DNA from: Chloroflexota bacterium
Lineage (GTDB): Bacteria; Chloroflexota; UBA11872; VXOZ01
Assembly: GCA_963663275.1 (NCBI GenBank)
Contig: OY760183.1
Span: 3,296,001-3,360,000, forward strand
Direction of reading: 5' to 3'
Length of the DNA: 64,000 nucleotides
Shown in pieces: positions 5,685-64,000 of the stretch. The notes below the pieces were generated by a model. The model made no database searches. It worked only from the letters and a program-made list of their open reading frames with translations, and was not told the origin of the DNA. The translations under genes were made by a program, and so were the position numbers. Positions within the stretch are counted from its first letter, which is position 1, and every line of letters starts with the position of its first letter.

Positions 5685-6686
5685 ATGTTGCCAAGCAAGC
5701 GCCCGCTTCGCCGCGTTATCGCTTTGCGCCCGCCGTGCGCGCTTGTGCGCGCGCGGCGTCTCTTGCCGCCCGGCTTGTGGTGGACGTTGCTCGCCGCGCT
5801 CCTCATTGCCGCGTGCAGCGCGGCCGCTGCGCCGGGCGCGCCGCTTCAGCCGGACGAGCCGTCCGGCAAGGCCGCGCCCACGCCGATTGTCGTATCGCCG
5901 GGCGCTTTTGCGCGGCGAAACCCCATGCCGGCCCCAACCGTCTCGCCGACGCCGCCGCCGACGCCGGTTCCTTCTCCCACGCCCGACTTCTCGAAACTGC
6001 CCTACGAGACCCGCATCTGGGAGGTGCGCCGGGGCGATCCTCACGCCCGCGCCGTAGCCCTTACTTTCGACGCCGGTTCCATTGCCACCTTCACGCCGTC
6101 GATGCTGGACACGCTGCGCCAGCACGACGTGCGCGTCACCATCTTCATGACCGGCGAGTTCGCCGACCGCTACCCCGACCTGCTCAAGCGGATGATCGCC
6201 GACGGGCACGAAATCGGCAACCACAGCTACTGGCACCCCGACTTCACCGAACTCGACGACGAGGAAATCCGCCGCGAACTCGCGCGCACGGAAAGAGCCG
6301 TCAAGCGGATAACGGGCGTGAGCACCAAGCCCTGGTTCCGCGCCCCGTACGGCGCGCGCAATTACCACGTTACCGACCTCGTCGTCCGCGAAGGCTACTG
6401 GAGCATCTACTGGACGATCGACACGGACGACTGGCGGGAAGAGGCCAATCCCGACTTCATCTTGCAGCGCATCCGCGACAGGCTGCAAAACGGCGCGATC
6501 ATCCTGGCCCACCTCTCCAGCCACCACACCATGGCCGCCCTGCCGGACATCTTGACCGAACTGAAGCAACAGGGCTACCGCATTGTGAAGGTCTCCGAGA
6601 TTCTGCAAGCGCCCGCGGTCACGCCCACTCCGCCGCCGCCCATCATCCTCGAACCGACGCCCACCGTGGTGCTGGCGCGCCCTTGA
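5685..6686 (+). CDS. Polysaccharide deacetylase (CE4/NodB), probable lipoprotein with a Pro/Thr linker
   Basis: ALTFDAG, HEIGNHSYWH, FRAPYG, DTDDW and GAIILAH; lipobox-like IAAC; start uncertain. Confidence 0.85.
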   Translation: MLPSKRPLRRVIALRPPCALVRARRLLPPGLWWTLLAALLIAACSAAAAPGAPLQPDEPSGKAAPTPIVVSPGAFARRNPMPAPTVSPTPPPTPVPSPTPDFSKLPYETRIWEVRRGDPHARAVALTFDAGSIATFTPSMLDTLRQHDVRVTIFMTGEFADRYPDLLKRMIADGHEIGNHSYWHPDFTELDDEEIRRELARTERAVKRITGVSTKPWFRAPYGARNYHVTDLVVREGYWSIYWTIDTDDWREEANPDFILQRIRDRLQNGAIILAHLSSHHTMAALPDILTELKQQGYRIVKVSEILQAPAVTPTPPPPIILEPTPTVVLARP

Positions 6687-6711
6687 CAGTTTCCGGCGGC
6701 TTGCGTAGAAT
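6683..6711 (+). promoter_or_regulatory. Sigma70-type promoter of the trp leader
   Basis: TTGACA-17 bp-TAGAAT, overlapping the stop codon of the deacetylase gene. Confidence 0.85.
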
Positions 6712-6734
6712 GTGAACCACAACTGAAGATACCA

Positions 6735-7057
6735 AAGGCGATGATCAGGAAGAGTACGCTGACAAGGCGGCCTCGAGAGAGCCGGGGAACGGTGGGATCC
6801 CGGTGGCGCGCGGACAGCGGAATGGGCCTGGGAGCTGTGGCCTGAACGATGGTCGCAAGAGCGGATTGAGTTAGGACGTTCGCTTACGCGGTCGCCAAGT
6901 AGGCGCCAACGGAACCCCTACCGTAGACATTGGGGCAGGCATGAAACCGCCGACGGCGGGGAGCGCCTGAGCAAACGAAGCGGGCCGCGCTATGCGGCCA
7001 AGAAGGGTGGCACCGCGAGATTCTTTCTCGTCCCTTTGGGGACGAGATTTTTTCTTT
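6735..7057 (+). promoter_or_regulatory. T-box riboswitch with a Trp specifier
   Basis: Stem I with AGTA, AGAGA and GGTGGGA motifs and GAA-TGG (UGG at 6823-6825); T-box AAGGGTGGCACCGCG at ~7003-7017; terminator TCTCGTCCC-TTTG-GGGACGAGA plus a T-run; directly upstream of trpE. Confidence 0.93.
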
Positions 7058-7084
7058 AATGCAGGAGCCTCAACGAGGAACGTC

Positions 7085-8605
7085 ATGGCAGTTACGCAAG
7101 CCGCGCCGGGCACGGTATTTGCCGGTATTCAGCCGGATCCAGACGCGGTGCGCGCGCTCGCCGCGGAGGGGCTGACCGTACCCATTTCGCGCACTATTCC
7201 CGCGGACCTGGAAACGCCGGTCTCCGCCTACCTCAAGATCGCCCAGGGCGACTATTCGTTCCTGCTGGAAAGCGTGCAAGGAGGCGAGAGCCTGGGCCGC
7301 TACTCGTTCATCGGCACGAATCCTTCCACCGTGATACGCATGGACAACGGCACGGCCACCCGCACGCGGCACGGCGCCAGCGCGTCGCGCGCCTACACAG
7401 ACCCGCTCAAGGTGCTGGAAGAGGAAATCGCCCGTACCGACCTCGCCGTCATGCCCGGCCTGCCGCGTTTTCAGGGCGGCGCGGTCGGCTACCTCGGTTA
7501 TGAGACCGTGCGCTACTTCGAGCCCCGGGTGCCCCTGCCGGCCGAGGACGCCCTGCCCGTGCCCGAGGCGATCTTCATGTTTACCGACAGCCTGGTCATG
7601 TTCGACCACGTGAAGCACAGCCTCACCATCATTGCCTACGTCTCGCCTCACGGCGACGTTGACGAAAACTACGAAACGGCGGTCGCCGCGATCGAGGACA
7701 TCAACGCCCGCCTCCACACCGCCGTGCCCACCGTGCGCGGCACGGGAAGACCGGGCGAGGCACAGCCAAGCATGACCGAGGCGCAGCACCACGCGATGGT
7801 GCGCGCCGCCAAGGAATACATCGCCGCCGGCGACATCATCCAGTCGGTGCTGGGCCTGCGCTGGTCGCGGCCTTTGGGCGTGCATCCGTATTCGGTCTAC
7901 CGGGCGCTGCGCATGATCAACCCTTCGCCGTACATGTTCTACCTGAATCTTGACGACGTGCAGATCGTCGGCGCGTCACCGGAGATGCTGGTGCGCGTGG
8001 AAGGCGCGCACGCCACCACCCGCCCCATCGCCGGCACCCGCCGCCGGGGCGGCACGCCGGAAGAAGACGCGGCTTTGGCCGAGGAACTGCTCGCCGACGA
8101 GAAAGAACGCGCCGAACACATCATGCTGGTTGACCTGGGACGCAACGACCTGGGGCGCGTCTGCCGCGCCGGTTCGGTGCACGTGCCGACGCTCATGGTG
8201 GTGGAAGAGTTTTCCCACGTCATGCACATCGTTTCGCAAGTGGAAGGCGAACTGGCGCCGGGCAAGACGGCCTTCGACGCGCTGCGCTCGTGCTTTCCGG
8301 CCGGCACGCTCTCCGGCGCGCCCAAAGTGCGCGCCATGGAGATCATCTCCGAACTGGAAGGCACCACGCGCGGGCCTTACGGCGGCGCGGTCGGCTACTT
8401 CGACTACTCCGGCAACATGGACATGGCAATCACGATTCGCACCATGACCGTGCAGGACAACACGGCCTACATCCAGGCCGGAGGCGGCATCGTGGCGGAT
8501 TCCGATCCCGAAGAGGAGTACCAGGAGGTGTGCAACAAGGCCGCCTCGACCATGCGCGCAATCGACGTTGCGGAGGAGATGGAACGTGATCTTCATGCTG
8601 GATAA
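7085..8605 (+). CDS. trpE: Anthranilate synthase component I
   Basis: ADLETPVSAY, NPSPYMF, PIAGTR, KERAEHIMLVDLGRND and PAGTLSGAPKVRAM. Confidence 0.95.
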   Translation: MAVTQAAPGTVFAGIQPDPDAVRALAAEGLTVPISRTIPADLETPVSAYLKIAQGDYSFLLESVQGGESLGRYSFIGTNPSTVIRMDNGTATRTRHGASASRAYTDPLKVLEEEIARTDLAVMPGLPRFQGGAVGYLGYETVRYFEPRVPLPAEDALPVPEAIFMFTDSLVMFDHVKHSLTIIAYVSPHGDVDENYETAVAAIEDINARLHTAVPTVRGTGRPGEAQPSMTEAQHHAMVRAAKEYIAAGDIIQSVLGLRWSRPLGVHPYSVYRALRMINPSPYMFYLNLDDVQIVGASPEMLVRVEGAHATTRPIAGTRRRGGTPEEDAALAEELLADEKERAEHIMLVDLGRNDLGRVCRAGSVHVPTLMVVEEFSHVMHIVSQVEGELAPGKTAFDALRSCFPAGTLSGAPKVRAMEIISELEGTTRGPYGGAVGYFDYSGNMDMAITIRTMTVQDNTAYIQAGGGIVADSDPEEEYQEVCNKAASTMRAIDVAEEMERDLHAG

Positions 8606-9209
8606 CTACGACTCGTTTACGTACAACCTGGTGCAGTACATGGGGGAACTGGGCGCGGAGATGGAAGTGGCGCGCAACGACAAGACCACCACCGAGTCCG
8701 TGCTGGCGCTGGAGCCGGACGGCATCGTCATCTCGCCGGGCCCGTGCACGCCCAACGAGGCCGGCATCTCCAACGACCTCATCGCGCGGGCCGCGGGCAG
8801 GATACCCTTGCTCGGCGTCTGCCTCGGCCACCAGTGCATCGGCCAGGTGTTCGGCGGCAGCGTGATACGCGCCGCTACCCTGATGCACGGCAAGACCTCG
8901 CTGATCCACCACTACGGCGGCGAACTCTTCGCGGGCCTGGAGAATCCCTTTGTGGCGACGCGCTACCATTCGCTGCTCTTGGATCCGGCGCGCGTGCCGC
9001 CGGCGCTGGACGTGACGGCAAAGGCCGACGACGGCACGATCATGAGCCTGCGCCACCGGCAGTATCCGGTCTACGGCGTGCAGTTTCACCCCGAATCCAT
9101 CCTGACCACGGAAGGCAAGAAACTCCTGCGGAACTTTCTCAATATCGTCGAGCAGCAGCGGGCGCGGGAAGGGCAAGCGACTGCCGCGCGCCAGGGAGCA
9201 GGGCAATGA
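8586..9209 (+). CDS. trpG: Anthranilate synthase component II (glutamine amidotransferase)
   Basis: DNYDSFTYNL, SPGPC, GVCLGHQ and QFHPES; GTG start overlaps the end of trpE. Confidence 0.93.
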   Translation: MIFMLDNYDSFTYNLVQYMGELGAEMEVARNDKTTTESVLALEPDGIVISPGPCTPNEAGISNDLIARAAGRIPLLGVCLGHQCIGQVFGGSVIRAATLMHGKTSLIHHYGGELFAGLENPFVATRYHSLLLDPARVPPALDVTAKADDGTIMSLRHRQYPVYGVQFHPESILTTEGKKLLRNFLNIVEQQRAREGQATAARQGAGQ

Positions 9210-10222
9210 TCCGCGAAGCCACGACGAAAGTAATCGAAGGCGCGTCCCTCACCCGCGACGAGGCGGCGGCGGCAATGACCGAAATCATGGACGCGGCGTG
9301 CACCCCGGCGCAATTCGGCGCGTTTGTCACGGCGCTCCGCGCGAAAGGCGAGACCGCCGACGAGATTGCCGGGTGCCTTGCCGTCATGCGCGACAAAGCG
9401 CTGCCCGTGTCGGTCAGCCAGCCGGTTGCTGACACCTGCGGTACGGGAGGCGACGGCGTGGGTACCTTCAATGTCTCCACTGCCACCGCTCTCGTCCTGG
9501 CGGCGGCCGGCCAACCCGTGGCTAAGCACGGCAACCGCGCCATGAGCAGCGCCTGCGGCAGCGCCGACGTGCTGGAGGCCCTCGGCGTACAGATTGAGCT
9601 TGGCCCCGAGGCGGTGGCGCAGTGCATCGAGCAGGTTGGCATCGGATTTATGTTCGCCCAAGCCTATCATCCCGCTATGAAATTCGCCGCGCCGCTGCGC
9701 CGCGAAATCGGCATTCGCACCATCTTCAACATTCTCGGCCCGCTGACCAATCCCGCCGGGGCAAGCTACCGCGTGTTCGGCGTCGCCGACCCGGGTCTCG
9801 CGGATGACATTGCCCATGCGCTGAGCGCGCTCGGTGTCAGCCGCGCGCTGGTCGTGCACGGTGAAGCCGACGGTGTTGATGAAATCTCCATCAGCGGACC
9901 CACGCTGGTGACAGAATGGAATGGCAATGACGTGCAAAACTATCGCTTGGCGCCGGCCGACTTCGGCCTCGCCACAGCGCCGGTGAGTGAAATCAGGGGC
10001 GGTTCGGTAGATGAAAACGCCCAATACGTGCGCGACGTGGTGGCCGGCGCGCCCGGCCCGCGCCGCGACGTGGTAGTGATGAACGCCGCCGCCGGCCTCG
10101 TCGTCAGCGGCAGAGCGGGCGATTGGAAAGAAGGCGCGCAACAGGCCACAGCCGCCATCGAGAGCGGCCAAGCCGCCGCCAAGCTGGATGCGCTCGCAAG
10201 CCTTAGTCAGCGCCTCGCCTAG
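9206..10222 (+). CDS. trpD: Anthranilate phosphoribosyltransferase
   Basis: DTCGTGGDG, FNVST, KHGNRAMSSACGSADVLEALG and RTIFNILGPLTNP; ATGA overlap with trpG. Confidence 0.95.
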   Translation: MIREATTKVIEGASLTRDEAAAAMTEIMDAACTPAQFGAFVTALRAKGETADEIAGCLAVMRDKALPVSVSQPVADTCGTGGDGVGTFNVSTATALVLAAAGQPVAKHGNRAMSSACGSADVLEALGVQIELGPEAVAQCIEQVGIGFMFAQAYHPAMKFAAPLRREIGIRTIFNILGPLTNPAGASYRVFGVADPGLADDIAHALSALGVSRALVVHGEADGVDEISISGPTLVTEWNGNDVQNYRLAPADFGLATAPVSEIRGGSVDENAQYVRDVVAGAPGPRRDVVVMNAAAGLVVSGRAGDWKEGAQQATAAIESGQAAAKLDALASLSQRLA

Positions 10223-10370
10223 CGCCGCGCCAAGCCGGGTTTGGCAGGTCAAGCTAGGTTTGACAGATAATGAAACTCCGCATCTGTCCCCTCTCCCTGA
10301 GGGAGAGGGTTAGGGTGAGGGTGAAACATCAGAGCAAGACAAGGTTGAAGAGGCACCAGGGACAACGCAG

Positions 10371-11252
10371 ATGATTCTCGACATAATCCTGCAACATAAA
10401 GAACACGAGTTGGCAGAGCGGCAATCTGCCGTGCCCTTGCCCGCATTGGTAAAGAAGGCGGAAGCGGCGGACCCGCCCCGCGACTTCGCGGCCGCCCTGC
10501 GGCAGGACGGCATCCGGCTCATCGCCGAGATCAAGCGCGCCTCGCCTTCCAAAGGCGTGTTCGCCCCCGGCCTCGACCCGGCGGCGCTGGCGCAAACCTA
10601 CGAGGCCGGCGGCGCCAGCGCCCTCTCCGTGCTCACGGACGCACGGTTCTTCCAGGGATCGCTGGACGATCTGGCAGCCGCGCGAGCAGCCGTGCGCATA
10701 CCCGCCTTGCGCAAGGATTTTACGACGGACGAATACCACATTGTCGAGGCTCGCGCCTCCAGAGCCGACGCGGTGCTCCTCATCGTGGCCGCGCTCCCGC
10801 AGCCGCGCTTGGCCGCGCTGCTCCGCTGCGCCGCGGATTGGGGCATGGCCGCCATCGTGGAAGTGCACACGGCGGAGGAAACCGCGCAAGCCCTGGCCGT
10901 AGACGCGGCCATCATCGGCATCAACAACCGCAACCTGTACACCTTCGAGACCACGCTTGAGACTACGGCGGAACTCCGCCAACTCATCCCAAGCGACCGC
11001 TTGGTCATTAGCGAAAGCGGCATCCACACGCCCGCCGACGTAGCGCGGCTGCACGATTGGAACGTAGACGCCATGCTCGTCGGCGAATCGCTGGTTACCG
11101 CTTCCGACACAGCCGCCAAAGTTGCAGAGTTGGTCGCCGCGGCGCAGGAATCAGCGGAAGTCCCGCCTGTCGCGAAAGCCTCGCCATCCGCGCATGCCCC
11201 GCCATCCGTCATTCCGGCGAAAGCCGGAATCCAGAGGGAGCGCGCCCCGTGA
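10371..11252 (+). CDS. trpC: Indole-3-glycerol-phosphate synthase with a repeat-derived C-terminal tail
   Basis: IAEIKRASPSKG, SVLTD, LRKDF, GINNRNL, SESGI and LVGESL. Confidence 0.95.
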   Translation: MILDIILQHKEHELAERQSAVPLPALVKKAEAADPPRDFAAALRQDGIRLIAEIKRASPSKGVFAPGLDPAALAQTYEAGGASALSVLTDARFFQGSLDDLAAARAAVRIPALRKDFTTDEYHIVEARASRADAVLLIVAALPQPRLAALLRCAADWGMAAIVEVHTAEETAQALAVDAAIIGINNRNLYTFETTLETTAELRQLIPSDRLVISESGIHTPADVARLHDWNVDAMLVGESLVTASDTAAKVAELVAAAQESAEVPPVAKASPSAHAPPSVIPAKAGIQRERAP

Positions 11253-11941
11253 CAAGGGTCATTGAATCTATGAAATCCAACCAAAACACGGCGCAGTCTT
11301 CCATCACGCCCAAAGTGAAGATCTGCGGCATCATGGCGCTTGCCGACGCGGAAGCAGCCGTGGCGCACGGCGCGGACTTCCTCGGCTTCGTCTTCGTCAA
11401 GGGCAGACGGCGGTGCATGGCGGTGGCAGACACCCGCGCAATTGTCCGGTCGCTTGGCTCAGCGTGTCCGCCGGCTGTGGGGCTTTTTCTCGATGAGGAC
11501 CCGGCGACCGTCCGGCAGGTGGTGGCGGCGTGCGGGCTGGAGTACGCGCAGTTGTGCGGCCAGGAAACGCCCGCTTACTGCGCCGGCTTGGGCATCCCGC
11601 ACTGGAAAGTCGTAAACCTGCATTCAATGGCGGATTACGCGCGCATGACGCCGTACGACGCGGCCGCCGCCTTTGTGCTGGAGGGCGCCGACAATGGGCC
11701 CGGCGGCACCGGCCAGTCTTGGGACTATGGGCTCGCGGCCAATGCGCCCCGCGACCGCCCCACGCTCATGGCCGGCGGGCTTTCACCGGACAACGTCAGC
11801 GCCGCCATCGCCCAAGCGCGGCCCTGGGGCGTGGACGTAAGCAGCGGCGTGGAAACCAACGGCAAGAAAGACCCCGACAAGATTGCCGCATTTATCCGTC
11901 TCGCCAAACAGAATCCGGCGTCACGAAAGGCAGCCCCATGA
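11249..11941 (+). CDS. trpF: Phosphoribosylanthranilate isomerase
   Basis: VKICGI, GGTGQSWDY, AGGLSPDNV and VDVSSGVE; start either GTG 11249 (overlapping the trpC stop) or ATG 11270. Confidence 0.93.
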   Translation: MTRVIESMKSNQNTAQSSITPKVKICGIMALADAEAAVAHGADFLGFVFVKGRRRCMAVADTRAIVRSLGSACPPAVGLFLDEDPATVRQVVAACGLEYAQLCGQETPAYCAGLGIPHWKVVNLHSMADYARMTPYDAAAAFVLEGADNGPGGTGQSWDYGLAANAPRDRPTLMAGGLSPDNVSAAIAQARPWGVDVSSGVETNGKKDPDKIAAFIRLAKQNPASRKAAP

Positions 11942-12147
11942 AACGCTTGCAGGAAATAGTCGATGAACTGCCGCCGGAGTTGCAACAGGAAGTCTACGAC
12001 TTCGCGCAATTCCTGCACGAGAAGAGGGCACGGCCAAAACGCAAGGGAAAGCTGCGCCTCACCTGGGCGGGCGGTCTCGCTGAGTATCGCGACCGCTATA
12101 CTTCACTTGATCTCCAACGCAAAGCACTCGAGTGGTGGGGAGACTAA
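11938..12147 (+). CDS. DUF2281-like antitoxin
   Basis: 69 aa: ELPPELQQEVYDFAQFL...LTWAGGL...TSLDLQRKALEWW; ATGA overlap with trpF and TAATG overlap with the PIN gene. Confidence 0.8.
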   Translation: MKRLQEIVDELPPELQQEVYDFAQFLHEKRARPKRKGKLRLTWAGGLAEYRDRYTSLDLQRKALEWWGD

Positions 12148-12551
12148 TGTTCCTCGTTGATACGAATGTATGGCTGGAAGTCTTACTTAACCAGGAAAAG
12201 GCAGCAGAGGCACAGGAGTTTCTCAGTTCAATCGAGCCAAGCCACCTGGTTCTGACAGATTTCACTCTTTATTCAATTGGGATCATACTTACCCGACTTG
12301 GAAAAGATCAGCTATTCTCCGATTTCACCTCAGACACGCTTGAAAGTGGTGACGTTAGCACTGTTCGACTAACGACTGCGGACCTACAAGACCTGCTTAT
12401 AGTGAGGCAGCGGTTTCGACTTGATTTCGACGATGCCTATCAATATGCTGCCGCTGAAAAGTACGGCTTCATGCTCGTAAGCTTTGACACTGACTTTGAT
12501 AACACAGACCTTGGAAGAAGAACCCCCAACCAAGCTATCGCAAAATCCTAA
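12147..12551 (+). CDS. vapC: PIN-domain (VapC-like) toxin
   Basis: MFLVDTNVWLE...LDFDDAYQY...LVSFDTDFD with the conserved acidic residues; visibly lower GC than the trp genes. Confidence 0.88.
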   Translation: MFLVDTNVWLEVLLNQEKAAEAQEFLSSIEPSHLVLTDFTLYSIGIILTRLGKDQLFSDFTSDTLESGDVSTVRLTTADLQDLLIVRQRFRLDFDDAYQYAAAEKYGFMLVSFDTDFDNTDLGRRTPNQAIAKS

Positions 12552-12570
12552 GCGAGGAGGACCAATCACT

Positions 12571-13698
12571 GTGCCACGACCACCTCAGAAACGCATTCTC
12601 ACCGGCATGCGCACCACCGGCGCGGCGCATCTCGGCCATTACGCCGGGGCTCTGCGCAACTGGGTCGAAATGCAAGGCGAATACGAGTGTTACTTCCTGC
12701 TCGCCGACGTGCAGGCCTTTAGCACGCACTTCGACGATCCGCAACGGATCGTCGAATCCCTGCACGAAATGGTGCTCGACTGGCTCGCCGTCGGCCTCGA
12801 CCCCACCAAGCAGGGCAACATCTTCTTCGTCTTGCAGAGCCAGATTCAGGATCTCACCGAACTCACCACCTACTTCTCCATGCTCACGCCGATGGCCTAC
12901 GTCGAGCGCAACCCCACCATCAAGAGCGAGCGCGCCCAGTACGGCGAGCGCGCCGGCAATTTGGGGTTCTACAACTATCCGGTCTCCCAGGCCGCCGACG
13001 TGCTGCTCTTCACGCCGCCGCCGCCCCACGTAGACGGCGACGAACTCTGCGTGCCGGTGGGCGAAGACCAACTGCCGCTGCTGGAACTCACCAACGACAT
13101 CGCCGGCTGGTTCAACCGTACCTACGACCGGGTCTTCCTGCAATGCACGCACCGCCTCAGCGAGGTGCCGCGCCTCATGGGCACCGACGGCCAGGCGAAG
13201 ATGAGCAAGAGCCTGGGCAACGTCATTCTGCTCAGCGACGACGCGGACACCGTGCAGAAGAAAGTCATGAGCATGTACACCGATCCCACGCGGCTGCGCG
13301 CTACCGATCCCGGCCACGTGGAAGGCAACCCGGTGTTCATGTACCACGACGCCTTCAATCCGGACGTGGCCGAGGTGGACGAACTGAAAGACCGCTACCG
13401 CAAGGGCCGGGTCGGCGACGTGGAGGTGAAGCGCAAACTGGTTGCCGCCCTCAACGGGATGCTCGATCCCATCCGGGAGCGGCGCGCCGCCTTCGGGCAA
13501 GACCCGGACATCGTGCGGGAGGTCCTGCGCGGCGGCATCGAGCAGACCCGCGCGGTGGGCGGCGAGACCATGGCCCACGCCCGCGCCGCCATGTACATCG
13601 ACTATCCGAAACTGCTCGCGCAGCCCCCATCCGTCACTCCCGCGAAAGCGGGAGTCCAGGGGCGGGGAGCGGATGGATTCCCGCCTGCGCGGGAATGA
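12571..13698 (+). CDS. trpS: Tryptophanyl-tRNA synthetase
   Basis: HLGH (HIGH motif), YPVSQAAD, VPVGEDQ, KMSKS and YTDP..R.TDPG.VEGNPVF; GTG start after GAGGAGG. Confidence 0.95.
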   Translation: MPRPPQKRILTGMRTTGAAHLGHYAGALRNWVEMQGEYECYFLLADVQAFSTHFDDPQRIVESLHEMVLDWLAVGLDPTKQGNIFFVLQSQIQDLTELTTYFSMLTPMAYVERNPTIKSERAQYGERAGNLGFYNYPVSQAADVLLFTPPPPHVDGDELCVPVGEDQLPLLELTNDIAGWFNRTYDRVFLQCTHRLSEVPRLMGTDGQAKMSKSLGNVILLSDDADTVQKKVMSMYTDPTRLRATDPGHVEGNPVFMYHDAFNPDVAEVDELKDRYRKGRVGDVEVKRKLVAALNGMLDPIRERRAAFGQDPDIVREVLRGGIEQTRAVGGETMAHARAAMYIDYPKLLAQPPSVTPAKAGVQGRGADGFPPARE

Positions 13699-13852
13699 CG
13701 GGCTGCGAATTGTCTCTCTGCACACGTAGTGAAGTGAGGCGTCAGCACACCCTAAGCCACACCGCGAGGTGCGCAACGCTACAGAGACGAAGACTGCCCC
13801 GTAGATCACGCGCCTCGCATCCGAGACAGAGCATTGAAATAGGAGCCCTCTT

Positions 13853-15048
<1,196 letters not shown>

Positions 15049-15052
<4 letters not shown>

Positions 15053-15864
15053 GCCGCCTCACCGCGACCTTTGACCAAACCCGGGCGGAAAACCGGGCCG
15101 CGCTGATTACGTTTGCCACCGTCGGCTACCCCTCGCCGGCCGACACGAAACGCGTCGTGCGCGCGCTCCTGGACGGGGGTTCCGACGTGGTGGAACTTGG
15201 CATCCCGTTTTCCGATCCGCTGGCCGACGGCGCCACCATCCAGCACGCCTCGCAGACCGCGCTCGACCAAGGCACGACCCTGGGCATGGCGTTCAACCTG
15301 GTACGCGAGTTGCGGGATGAGGGCGTGACCACACCCCTCGTCTTCATGGGCTACTACAATCCCTTCCTGCGTTACGGCCTCCAGCGCGTCGTCGCGGAAG
15401 CGGCGGAGATCGGCCTGGACGGCTTCATCGTGCCGGACCTGCCGCCGGAGGAAGGGCAGGAGTTTGGCCGCCTGGCCCGTGCCCGCAACCTCGATCTCAT
15501 TCCGCTCCTGGCCCCAACCAGCACCGAATCGCGCATCCGGGCCAACGTCCAGGTCGGCAGCGGTTTCGTCTACTGCGTCTCGCTCACCGGCGTCACCGGC
15601 GCGCGCGAGCAACTCTCCGCCGCGCTGCCGGACTTTCTGGACCGCGTGCGCGCCCACACCGGCCTGCCGCTGGCGGTGGGCTTTGGCGTCTCGCGGCCCG
15701 AGCACGTTGCCACCATCGCGCAACTGGCCGAGGGCGTGGTCAGCGCCAGCGTCTTGATCAACATCCTGGACGAGACCCCGGCCGCGCGGCGCTACCAGGC
15801 GCTGGCCGACCTGGTGCGCGCCATGCGCGAGAAGACTCTGCGCCAGGCCATCGCCAACGACTGA
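15049..15864 (+). CDS. trpA: Tryptophan synthase alpha chain
   Basis: [30 protein letters not shown] and GVTGAR. Confidence 0.97.
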
Positions 15865-15967
15865 GCCGGCGGCGCTTCCCTAACGAGGGCTTGGCGCCGG
15901 AGACGTGAAACCGAGATTGGGAGAGAAAGCGCGCCGCTGCTCCGGCGCGTGTGGAAGGAGACCGGCA

Positions 15968-16267
15968 GTGAAAGCGCCAGGTGAATGCCGCGACATGCAA
16001 GACATCCGCGCGGCAATCGACAGCATCGACCAGGAAGTCATCCGCTTGCTCGGCCGGCGGTTCGAGTACGTGCAAGCGGCGGCGCAATTCAAGACGAGCG
16101 CAACCGCGGTGCGCGCGCCGGAGCGGTTCAAGGCGATGCTGGAACAACGGCGCGCCTGGGCGCAAGCGGCCGGCCTGGACCCGGACGTGGTTGCGGGCGT
16201 CTATCGCGACCTGGTGGAGTACTTCATAGCGGAAGAAATGAAGCGCTGGCAGGCGGAATCAGGGTAG
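15968..16267 (+). CDS. Isochorismate-pyruvate lyase / AroQ chorismate mutase (PchB-like)
   Basis: KAPGECRDMQDIRAAIDSID...LGRRFEYVQAAAQFK...RAPERFKAML..RRAWA follows the PchB pattern; GTG start after GGAAGGAG. Confidence 0.8.
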   Translation: MKAPGECRDMQDIRAAIDSIDQEVIRLLGRRFEYVQAAAQFKTSATAVRAPERFKAMLEQRRAWAQAAGLDPDVVAGVYRDLVEYFIAEEMKRWQAESG

Positions 16268-16384
16268 CGCGAACAGGGTTCGACGTTCCGCCGCGCTCAG
16301 TTCGGCATGACACGGGAAACCGATGAAAGCGTACGAACCCCAGCCGGCCCTTCGGAACTGGAGAGCCAGTCTGGCAATTTCACC

Positions 16385-17167
16385 ATGATGCCCATCGCCT
16401 GTTCCACGCTCTGCTTCACGCAGCGCCCGCTTGACGAGGCCCTCCAGGGCATTGCGCGACTGGGGTTTCGTTATGTCGATTTGGGCGTGCAACGTTGGGC
16501 GCACGTCAGCGCCCCTGAAATAGCGCAGGCCGGGGCCGATTTCGCCGTCACCCTGCGGCGCGGCCTGGAACACGCCAACCTTGAACTTAGCGCCATGAAC
16601 GTGGGGCTCGAGCGCGATGCCGCCGTCTCCCTGGAAGAACAGGTCGCGGCAGTCTGCGCGCTGGCCGCGGACCATGCCCTGCCCGCGATCTGCATAAACC
16701 CGCCCGCGAACGGCACGCCCGTGGAGGCGGCGCTCGTCGAGTTGCGCACACTCGCCGCCGTCGCCGCCCGCTACGACGTCGCGCTCTGTCTTGAAACCCA
16801 CGTCAACTGTCTCACCGAGATACCGGCAGTGGCCGCGCGGCTGGCCGCGTCCGTGCCGAACCTCGGCATTGCCCTGGACTCCTCCCACTTCTACGCGGGC
16901 CCCTGGCAGGGCCGCGACTATGCCGCCGTGTTTCCCCATACGCGGATCGTCCACTTGCGCGATGCCGGCAATTCTCCCGATCAGATCCTCGTGCCGCCGG
17001 GTGAGGGAAACGTAGACTTTGCCGCGCTTCTCAACGGACTGGCGCAATGCGGCTACCAGGGCCCGCTGGCGGTGGAGTACATCGATACGCGCGTTGCGCC
17101 GGACGCCTACCACGAGCACCTCGCCCAGGTGAAAGCAATGGCGGAACTGGCACAATCTCTTCTCTAG
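16385..17167 (+). CDS. Sugar phosphate isomerase/epimerase (xylose isomerase-like TIM barrel)
   Basis: CLETH, ALDSSHF, VHLRDA, GEGNVDF and YQGPLAVEY; start uncertain. Confidence 0.75.
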   Translation: MMPIACSTLCFTQRPLDEALQGIARLGFRYVDLGVQRWAHVSAPEIAQAGADFAVTLRRGLEHANLELSAMNVGLERDAAVSLEEQVAAVCALAADHALPAICINPPANGTPVEAALVELRTLAAVAARYDVALCLETHVNCLTEIPAVAARLAASVPNLGIALDSSHFYAGPWQGRDYAAVFPHTRIVHLRDAGNSPDQILVPPGEGNVDFAALLNGLAQCGYQGPLAVEYIDTRVAPDAYHEHLAQVKAMAELAQSLL

Positions 17168-53037: not shown

Positions 53038-53110
53038 GCGGGAGTAGCTCAGTTGGCAGAGCGCTAGCCTTCCAAGCTGGATGTCGCGGGTTCGAGTCCC
53101 GTCTCCCGCT
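53038..53110 (+). tRNA. tRNA-Gly (anticodon TCC)
   Basis: Acceptor stem GCGGGAG/CTCCCGC, D-arm AGCTCAGTTGGCAGAGC, anticodon loop CTTCCAA, T-loop GGTTCGAGTCC; followed by CCCA rather than an exact CCA. Confidence 0.95.
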
Positions 53111-63876: not shown

Positions 63877-64000
63877 GCCGTGCTAGATGGGGAGTTAGCG
63901 GTGCCCTGTACCCGCAATCCGCTATAGCGGGGTTGACAGCTTTCCGTGAGGTTCGGGTTCTTTGGAGGCTGCCGCGTGGTTGCGGCGTTGATGGCTGGGT
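63877..64000 (+). ncRNA. ffs: Large bacterial SRP RNA (Alu-domain type), truncated by the window end
   Basis: GCCGTGCTAGATGGGGAGTTAGCGGTGCCCTGTACCCGCAATCCGCTATAGCGGGG closely resembles the 5' Alu domain of Bacillus-type scRNA. Confidence 0.9.

Follow-up and report, generated by a model that had tools for sequence, protein, structure and literature searches.

The VapBC toxin-antitoxin (TA) modules of Shigella and Mycobacterium tuberculosis combine a small PIN-domain toxin bearing conserved acidic residues with a small antitoxin, encoded upstream, whose stop codon overlaps the toxin start. We analyzed a pair of this build in a 64,000-nt stretch of the genome of a Chloroflexota bacterium (contig OY760183.1, positions 3,296,001 to 3,360,000 of the forward strand; hereafter the window), where it lies at 11938-12551 on the + strand, between trpF and trpS of a tryptophan (Trp) operon headed by a T-box leader. 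The pair shares all of the above features with VapBC; however, its antitoxin is of the DUF2281/COG5559 type and not an AbrB-, ribbon-helix-helix-, Phd- or MerR-type VapB, and we detected neither a promoter nor an operator specific to it. In our preferred reading, which we hold to be probable, the pair is a selfish passenger: a VapC-like/DUF2281 cassette that is functional but lacks a promoter and is carried along on the T-box(Trp) transcript.

The closest described systems are pairs of a PIN toxin with a DUF2281 partner. The toxin of one such VapC/DUF2281 pair, from a marine bacterium, reportedly poisons E. coli unless the antitoxin neutralises it (PMC12654330), and the accessible text on Synechocystis lists the PIN/COG5559-DUF2281 pairs sll0205/ssl0385, sll1092/ssl2138 and slr8014/ssr8013 (PMC4963859). 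The likeness of the pair studied here to these systems is one of domain description. The authors of the marine study report an inverted gene order for their candidates (PMC12654330, in the part available), whereas here, and in 79 of 80 homologous loci, the antitoxin gene comes first. A T-box or amino-acid operon setting is not described for the marine or the Synechocystis pairs in those portions of the two papers.

T-box control of trpS and trp genes is likewise established in Gram-positive bacteria, for example in B. subtilis, where the accessible part of the source places a T-box before rtpA/anti-TRAP (PMC10327191). The likeness to the present locus lies in a tRNA-Trp-sensing UGG leader with a terminator that precedes genes for Trp supply or charging. 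The difference is that here one leader serves seven biosynthesis genes and the sole trpS, with a TA pair aboard. As to small conflict or defence gene sets lodged tightly among co-directional genes whose transcription they borrow, E. coli mazEF lies downstream of relA; the present host differs in that it is an amino-acid operon of housekeeping function, governed by a tRNA sensor akin to a riboswitch, and that the next gene is essential. A further parallel is offered by the HipT and HipA2 kinases, which inhibit tryptophanyl-tRNA synthetase (TrpRS) and thus also tie a TA system to the tryptophanyl-tRNA step (PMC6581861, PMC8545095). In the available text of those reports, however, they are kinases that modify the TrpRS protein and are not encoded in a trp operon, whereas the link here is genomic and transcriptional and involves a predicted RNase toxin. 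The module type (VapC/DUF2281), the T-box control of trp and trpS, and TA toxins acting on TrpRS are therefore already known. A full-text literature search, judged on titles and abstract openings, returned no report of a TA pair within a T-box or trp operon.

The features of the operon, in window coordinates, are as follows.

6683..6711, + strand: operon promoter TTGACA-17-TAGAAT (11/12 consensus matches)
6732..7038, + strand: T-box leader, tRNA-Trp-specific, with specifier UGG and bulge UGGC (Rfam RF00230, 97.6 bits; gathering score 93)
7026-7047, + strand: T-box terminator hairpin followed by a T run (terminator scan)
7085..8605, + strand: trpE, anthranilate synthase I (Pfam Chorismate_bind E 9.7e-95, Anth_synt_I_N; start chosen among candidates)
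8586..9209, + strand: trpG, glutamine amidotransferase, overlapping the trpE end (Pfam GATase E 1.8e-60; candidate start)
9206..10222, + strand: trpD, its ATG overlapping the trpG stop (Pfam Glycos_transf_3 E 2e-92)
10371..11252, + strand: trpC, its 3' end crossing a palindromic repeat at 11208-11232 (Pfam IGPS E 2.1e-83)
11270..11941, + strand: trpF (Pfam PRAI E 2.3e-36; start uncertain among GTG 11249, ATG 11270 and GTG 11315)
11938..12147, + strand: antitoxin, 69 aa, DUF2281/COG5559 type (PF10047 E 6.4e-18)
12147..12551, + strand: toxin, 134 aa, VapC-like PIN domain, GC 0.46 (PF01850 E 1.9e-16)
12555..12561, + strand: trpS ribosome-binding site (RBS) GAGGAGG, 4 nt past the toxin stop (sequence reading)
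12571..13698, + strand: trpS, TrpRS (PF00579 E 3e-51; TIGR00233 245.2 bits, cut-off 176.75)
13853..15052, + strand: trpB (Pfam PALP E 1.2e-44; 89-93% identical in relatives, same position)
15049..15864, + strand: trpA, its start overlapping the trpB stop (Pfam Trp_syntA E 4.6e-84)

The ten genes thus follow the T-box leader in the order trpE, trpG, trpD, trpC, trpF, antitoxin, toxin, trpS, trpB, trpA, and the majority of the junctions between them consist of overlapping stop and start codons. The antitoxin ATG (11938-11940) shares bases with the trpF TGA (11939-11941) as ATGA, and the toxin ATG (12147-12149) shares one base with the antitoxin TAA (12145-12147) as TAATG. The toxin stop TAA occupies 12549-12551 and the trpS start GTG lies at 12571, which leaves a gap of 19 nt. 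The initial annotation of this DNA had described these junctions, including a trpS RBS within 20 nt of the toxin stop, and had placed a PIN-toxin/antitoxin pair inside a Trp T-box operon directly ahead of trpS; reading of the sequence bears out the former, and the Pfam, Rfam and junction evidence the latter. A search of the organism's own genome returned a single match for TrpRS, so that trpS is its sole TrpRS gene.

The regulatory setting was compared in the organism's own genome and 15 relatives from this Chloroflexota genus, which is known from metagenome-assembled genomes. One further genome, G014, was excluded as too fragmented: it is 69% complete, residues 1-37 of its toxin stand at the end of one contig, and a piece of trpS is found on a different one. 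The RF00230 match spans the full length of the model (1-219), and the leaders of the relatives score 99.5-119.4 bits. The specifier loop reads GAA-UGG-G, and the bulge UGGC pairs with the GCCA of tRNA-Trp(CCA) with its discriminator G; both elements fit tRNA-Trp, since the tRNA-Trp of the genome has the anticodon CCA and discriminator G. The UGG specifier is kept in 16/16 genomes, and the UGGC bulge in all but one, which has UGGU. Promoter, specifier, bulge and terminator all align across the 16 genomes: the -35 TGACA core and the -10 TAGAA are unchanged in the 16 aligned leaders (three rows begin inside the -35 hexamer), and the terminator hairpin at 7026-7047 with its T run is conserved. Exactly one T-box, the Trp one at this operon, was detected in each of 16 of the 17 genus genomes (G000-G016), the exception being the 69% complete genome. 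A single T-box leader therefore governs all seven Trp biosynthesis genes and the sole trpS.

The identity of the toxin was assessed by domain, structure and residue conservation. Its PIN match to PF01850 scores 61.2 bits (cut-off 23.6), and its AlphaFold2 model has a predicted local distance difference test score (pLDDT) of 96.6. A Foldseek search with this model returned 34 PDB matches at E<=0.001; almost every one of those listed is a VapC/FitB or another PIN-domain protein. The top matches are FitB and the VapC toxins of K. pneumoniae (7by2), VapC30 (4xgq) and VapC20 (5wz4), with template modelling (TM) scores of 0.73-0.82 and identities of 14-22%. A sequence search of solved structures with the pair yielded only VapC30, at E 0.96, a value too weak to bear on family membership, and no related DUF2281-PIN complex. 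An alignment of 38 homologs shows no substitution at D5, D95, D96 or D114 and hardly any at D116; at position 38, where helix 38-50 begins, 30 of them have D, 7 have E and 1 has A. We take these acidic residues to map to the four classical VapC active-site positions, an assignment that draws on general knowledge of the family and on a weak VapC30 alignment. NCBIfam gives the toxin no name, and PADLOC has no model for either protein.

For the antitoxin, DUF2281 alone passes the Pfam cut-off. The NCBIfam model TA_VapB scores 28.7 bits against a cut-off of 60 and covers residues 5-36 only, so that of the earlier designation "VapBC-type" the PIN/VapC-like toxin stands, whereas the classical VapB antitoxin gives way to a DUF2281/COG5559 protein. 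Three of its 69 residues are Trp (W43, W66, W67), compared with ~1.3% in the long open reading frames (ORFs) of the genome; of the 134 toxin residues, 1 is Trp. W66 and W67 form a WW pair four codons ahead of the toxin start. W43 and W66 are invariant, and position 67 is W or R in homologs from unrelated contexts. The Trp richness of the antitoxin is therefore a family trait and not an adaptation to this site. Structure prediction of the pair as a complex gave a score of 0.59, the best of 3 controls reaching 0.01, which supports the complex weakly: the 0.59 mark is reached by 116/157 solved complexes and 2/215 mismatched pairs, and at scores <=0.60 lie only 18/157 solved complexes, along with both passing mismatches. 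The prediction runs agree in >=87% of contacts, with a partner pLDDT of >=76.

The two proteins belong to a widespread family. Searches with tblastn confirmed 459 of 601 pattern-matched stretches as toxin relatives, distributed over many bacterial phyla and archaea, and the neighbourhoods were read at the best 80 loci. All but one of these (79) place a DUF2281-like gene immediately before the PIN gene, and 39 of the 79 have the identical 1-nt overlap (counted from the table). On the strength of the conserved two-gene arrangement and the domain content, the pair is predicted to be a type II TA module, in which the PIN protein would be toxic and its partner neutralising. Weak trpB-like matches were also observed 3 kb downstream of two Methanothrix homologs of the pair.

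Homologous pairs also occur inside other operons. Of 65 loci that could be assessed, 8 have the pair wedged in, at <=40 nt, between same-strand ORFs of >=100 codons each, and in 4 of the 7 wedged loci scanned against Pfam the flanks are functionally linked genes or paralogs. The examples (loci L041, L058, L095, L088 and L077) comprise type III restriction-modification mod/res genes (twice), herA/mre11 in a Thermococcaceae archaeon, two phosphodiesterase paralogs, and a ParA-like ATPase next to a C39-like peptidase. This suggests that the DUF2281-PIN family often lives as a promoter-less cassette within host operons.

Transcription signals around the pair were assessed by consensus scans, which detect sigma-70-type sites and to which other promoter types are invisible. 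The standard scan of 6400-16400 reported two promoter-like sites only, the leader promoter and a weak one at 10359-10387; no sigma-70-like site was found between 10388 and 16400, and no + strand terminator-like site past 11481. The weak site, GGGACA-17-CATAAT, overlaps the trpC start. A laxer scan (>=8/12 matches) of the 300 nt upstream of the antitoxin found a site in 0/15 genus loci, whereas the same lax criterion placed a sigma-70-like site within <=150 nt upstream in 32/73 free-standing homologs, a contrast that is partly an effect of base composition. An inverted-repeat search detected no operator-like palindrome near the antitoxin start (11938). The absence of a separate promoter for the pair, noted from this single sequence at the outset along with that of a terminator, thus extends across the genus loci as far as consensus scans detect such sites. 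A terminator would find no space in the four-base overlap with trpF, so that RNA polymerase transcribing trpF must continue into the pair. Since no promoter- or terminator-like site separates the pair from the operon, it is very likely, judging from the gene anatomy, that the pair is transcribed under T-box control, and its transcription very probably rises as uncharged tRNA-Trp builds up.

We next consider the distribution of the pair among the 16 genomes. The order T-box-trpEGDCF-antitoxin-(toxin)-trpS-trpBA is present in 16/16. An antitoxin gene follows trpF in all of them but G005; 13 of these 15 copies are intact ORFs, and the other two have a frameshift (G013) and a stop at codon 65 (G001). 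In 6/15 loci a spacer of 11-17 nt lies between the trpF stop and the antitoxin, and the three spacers examined contain an AGAGGAA-like RBS. The toxin is intact in only 5 of the 16 genomes (the organism's own, G002, G004, G009 and G012; identity 69-73%) and is lost or damaged in the other 11, which display at least six distinct architectures. In G013 the toxin is shortened by an in-frame internal deletion; in G003, G005 and G007 a spacer of 139-141 nt stands in its place; and in G001, G006, G008, G010, G011, G015 and G016 it is replaced by 245-948 nt of repeat-rich non-coding DNA. A remnant of the toxin 3' end beats all 200 shuffles in 6/11 toxin-less genomes, and in G008, G015, G006, G001 and G010 it is indistinguishable from chance by the same 200 shuffles. 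Ten of the 11 toxin-less genomes have the antitoxin gene, as an intact ORF in 8 of the 10. The GTG start of trpS and its purine-rich GGAGG-like RBS align in 16/16 genomes, with an RBS variant in two.

Searches with the toxin as query found no other homolog of it in the genomes of the toxin-less species, and none of 24 same-class genomes outside the genus has the toxin. In the 13 loci that could be inspected outside the genus, trpS adjoins neither trpF nor trpB. This pattern of presence and loss among relatives indicates that the cassette is ancestral to the genus and that the toxin was lost many times. The initial annotation had asked whether the pair might be private to one lineage, with different cargo at the same site in relatives. 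The second part is seen, as repeat elements fill the place of the toxin in several relatives; the first is not, the cassette being ancestral to the genus.

The cassette has also moved between species. In a tree of trpS+trpB the five toxin-bearing species are scattered, four of them sister to or nested among toxin-less species. Sliding windows account for part of this scatter, as G002 and G009 show 0.96-1.00 identity over ~900 nt, from the trpF 3' end through both cassette genes to the trpS start, compared with 0.62-0.75 in the 5' part of trpF and 0.85-0.96 in the rest of trpS. Such a near-identical tract amid diverged trpF shows that the cassette moves by recombination. The proportion of synonymous differences (pS) of the antitoxin is 0.02-0.04 where that of the flanks is 0.11-0.42, and the toxin-less allele of G007 and G003 follows the same pattern (antitoxin pS 0.02, trpF 0.26, trpS 0.17). 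From these tracts and pS contrasts we conclude that toxin-bearing and toxin-less alleles both pass between species via homologous recombination in the trp genes. In addition, a contig from a second sample covers 11280-12811 with no gaps and 79 differences; it thus shows that a similar toxin-bearing allele occurs outside the present sample. Of the two DNA runs compared, X1 leaves 12332-12585 uncovered, as a break between contigs and not a sign of absence.

Repeats and insertions are frequent at the locus. Palindromic repeats resembling miniature inverted-repeat transposable elements or repetitive extragenic palindromes (MITE/REP-like; GTCATTCC...GGAATCC) are abundant in the genome, with 281 and 33 copies of two core variants, and the same repeats occupy the former toxin site in relatives (L010, L011, L014, L020, L023). 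Within the operon, trpC reads through the repeat at 11208-11232, with very high contig depth at 11189-11315, and a repeat at 13675-13699 supplies the last trpS codons and the stop. The trpD-trpC spacer contains inserts of 1.36-1.5 kb in G015 (L137) and G006 (L143), with transposase-like ORFs (322 and 314 aa) on the operon strand; elsewhere it measures ~11 to 250 nt. With such insertion sequence (IS) elements in the spacer of these two relatives, the downstream genes may sometimes be driven otherwise. In the present genome the spacer (10223-10370) is 148 nt long, has a lower GC content of ~0.55 and contains the short palindrome CCCTCTCCCTGAGGGAGAGGG. Outside the operon, the window includes a tRNA at 53038-53110 (70.1 bits; anticodon loop read by eye as Gly-UCC), and its end cuts a large signal recognition particle (SRP) RNA, the 5' part of which lies at 63878-64000.

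Selection on the cassette was assessed from substitution rates. Median pairwise ratios of nonsynonymous to synonymous divergence (dN/dS) are 0.12 (toxin, 5 genomes), 0.06 (antitoxin, 14 genomes), 0.14 (trpF) and 0.04 (trpS), and synonymous divergence (dS) of the toxin among the five toxin-bearing species is ~1.2. The low dN/dS indicates that the toxin is kept working where it is present. For the antitoxin of toxin-less genomes the signs are mixed, four copies being damaged or lost: besides those of G013, G001 and G005 described above, the antitoxin of G015 has lost the invariant W66. The 9 toxin-less copies compared have 26 private changes, of which two copies account for 14, and the 5 toxin-bearing copies have 6, counts too small and mixed for a firm conclusion on relaxed selection. 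The change W67R was also considered as a sign of decay in orphan antitoxins and was dropped, as W and R vary at position 67 family-wide.

The toxin gene differs from its surroundings in base composition. In 200-nt windows over 12100-12599 the GC content is 0.46-0.485, with flanks at ~0.60-0.70, and GC at third codon positions (GC3) is 0.46 in the toxin versus 0.86 in trpS and 0.79 in trpF. The lower GC of the toxin gene that had been remarked on before thus amounts to 46% against ~65% around it. Family-wide, toxin GC minus host GC has a median of -0.049, and the toxin lies below its flank in 67/76 loci. We considered low GC as a mark of recent transfer and rejected this, since it is common to all five toxin-bearing species at dS ~1.2; the low GC is an old feature and no evidence of recent arrival.

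Taken together, the cassette would have been captured without a promoter of its own between trpF and trpS in the ancestor of the genus. It would ride the operon transcript, so that the level of its mRNA would track uncharged tRNA-Trp. Translation would pass by coupling from trpF to the antitoxin and from there to the toxin, and the antitoxin, thus made first, would normally hold the PIN RNase bound and silent. The toxin has been lost repeatedly and outlived by the antitoxin, and toxin-bearing and toxin-less versions are swapped between species by homologous recombination via the flanking trp genes. We consider this account, with the cassette as a selfish passenger, to have the better part of the probability. 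The identity and anatomy of the pair, its distribution, the selection on it and its recombination are observed; its co-transcription, toxicity, neutralisation and RNA target are inferred. The proposed link between Trp starvation and TA expression would then be real, if accidental.

Several observations weigh against this account. Purifying selection on the toxin at dS ~1.2 fits a benefit to the cell as well as it fits selfish persistence. In three toxin-less pairs that share a replacement sequence, the ratio of nonsynonymous to synonymous differences (pN/pS) of the antitoxin is 0.08-0.17, where simple decay predicts otherwise. The toxin GC3 is 0.43-0.50 in all five species, compared with 0.62-0.76 in the 10 other PIN genes of the genome, and this persistently low value might reflect selection on expression. 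The absence of an internal promoter is the outcome of scans for sigma-70-type consensus sites only, GC-rich coding DNA yields fewer chance promoter matches than AT-rich spacers, and a weak 8/12 site, TTCACT-17-CATACT, lies within the toxin gene in 4/5 toxin-bearing species. The nearest solved structure, finally, is 14-22% identical to the toxin.

The alternative that survives best, though we regard it as unlikely, is that the pair is independently regulated: it would be driven by a separate promoter, hidden towards the trpF 3' end or of a non-sigma-70 type, and would be autoregulated, so that its place in the operon matters little. Ordinary type II TA pairs are autoregulated, as is generally known and as the available part of one source states (PMC4487406). 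The 11-17 nt spacers of the six loci, with an AGAGGAA-like RBS in the three examined, are compatible with such an arrangement, as is the blindness of consensus scans to other promoter types. However, the count of upstream sites (0/15 genus loci over 300 nt versus 32/73 free-standing homologs over 150 nt) and the failure of the inverted-repeat search to detect an operator-like palindrome near the antitoxin start speak against it. Moreover, with the 4-nt trpF overlap, operon transcripts would enter the pair even if a second promoter existed.

A selected circuit, such as the starvation-to-dormancy or tRNA-Trp feedback circuit put forward in the initial annotation, is also unlikely and survives slightly less well. 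Here T-box read-through would lift the pair, and the freed toxin would slow translation, perhaps by cutting tRNA-Trp, leading to dormancy or to feedback through the T-box. The position of the pair within the T-box(Trp) unit, directly ahead of the sole trpS, and the purifying selection on the toxin in five species agree with this idea, and with a Trp-rich antitoxin and a Trp-poor toxin, Trp shortage could lower the antitoxin:toxin ratio. It had also been pointed out that some mycobacterial VapC toxins target tRNA-Trp, and the accessible portions of the literature confirm it: M. tuberculosis VapC25, 33 and 39 cleave tRNA-Trp (PMC5175351; see also PMC13657306 for M. tuberculosis VapCs that cut this tRNA). 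Nevertheless, the toxin has been lost in 11/16 species that retain the T-box, the operon and trpS, and the family occurs in unrelated operons. The Trp residues of the antitoxin are likewise found family-wide, in unrelated contexts, and a ribosome stalled at WW would also mask the toxin start region. Induction would yield both proteins, whereas classical release of a TA toxin comes after shut-off, and the closest folds (VapC30, VapC20 and the K. pneumoniae VapC) are uninformative on tRNA-Trp. The companion proposal, an addiction module that stabilises the trp operon, is not sustained, because the operon already holds the sole, essential trpS and needs no stabiliser.

A conflict between alleles appears more doubtful again. 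In this scenario antitoxin-only alleles are kept as an anti-addiction form, which can replace the toxin-bearing allele without killing the recombinant, and both forms circulate. Retention of the antitoxin in 10 of 11 toxin-less genomes (intact in 8/10), its pN/pS of 0.08-0.17 in the three pairs with a common replacement sequence, the clear recombination tracts across the cassette and the lack of any other toxin homolog, with the toxin as query, in toxin-less genomes are all in its favor. Against this stand the four decayed antitoxins (the G013 frameshift, the G001 stop at codon 65, the W66 loss in G015 and the G005 deletion). In addition, recombination has made a mosaic of the locus, so that the pN/pS of a pair may mostly measure how long the antitoxins have had a toxin as neighbour. 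The counts are also low, and the species, being related, are not independent.

With similarly low expectation we consider a two-layer Trp sensor. The T-box would lift the mRNA, while under Trp shortage the Trp-rich antitoxin would be under-translated and the Trp-poor toxin would escape and throttle translation; when Trp is plentiful, the low GC3 (rare codons) of the toxin would keep its output below that of the antitoxin. As the antitoxin Trp residues are family-wide, such a two-layer response would be a pre-existing trait and not an adaptation. If it is true, the toxin-less species gave up this brake.

PIN domains are also present in housekeeping RNases, and the toxin receives no name from NCBIfam or PADLOC, both of which are points for a domesticated or non-toxic PIN protein, that is, a harmless RNase, acting for example in processing of the operon mRNA, with the upstream protein as its cofactor. 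This is very improbable, given the conserved two-gene module in 79/80 loci from many unrelated contexts, the member pair that is toxic and neutralised in the available account (PMC12654330), and the frequent loss of the PIN gene with its partner retained, which is the pattern expected for a toxin.

How chromosomal TA pairs are switched on, and whether they serve the cells that carry them, is a long-running dispute. This locus bears on both questions. The input to the pair is unusually clear, because it has no detectable promoter of its own and is positioned behind a sensor of uncharged tRNA-Trp. Sister species provide natural controls, with the same operon and the toxin deleted, the antitoxin alone, or neither. 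With these controls one can ask directly if transcription and codon content let amino-acid starvation activate a TA pair, if a benefit comes with the toxin, and if antitoxin-only alleles serve as antidotes for toxin shedding. The locus is also an example of a TA cassette that spreads from species to species without a mobile element, by homologous recombination in housekeeping genes, and the DUF2281-PIN family to which it belongs repeatedly settles within other operons too.

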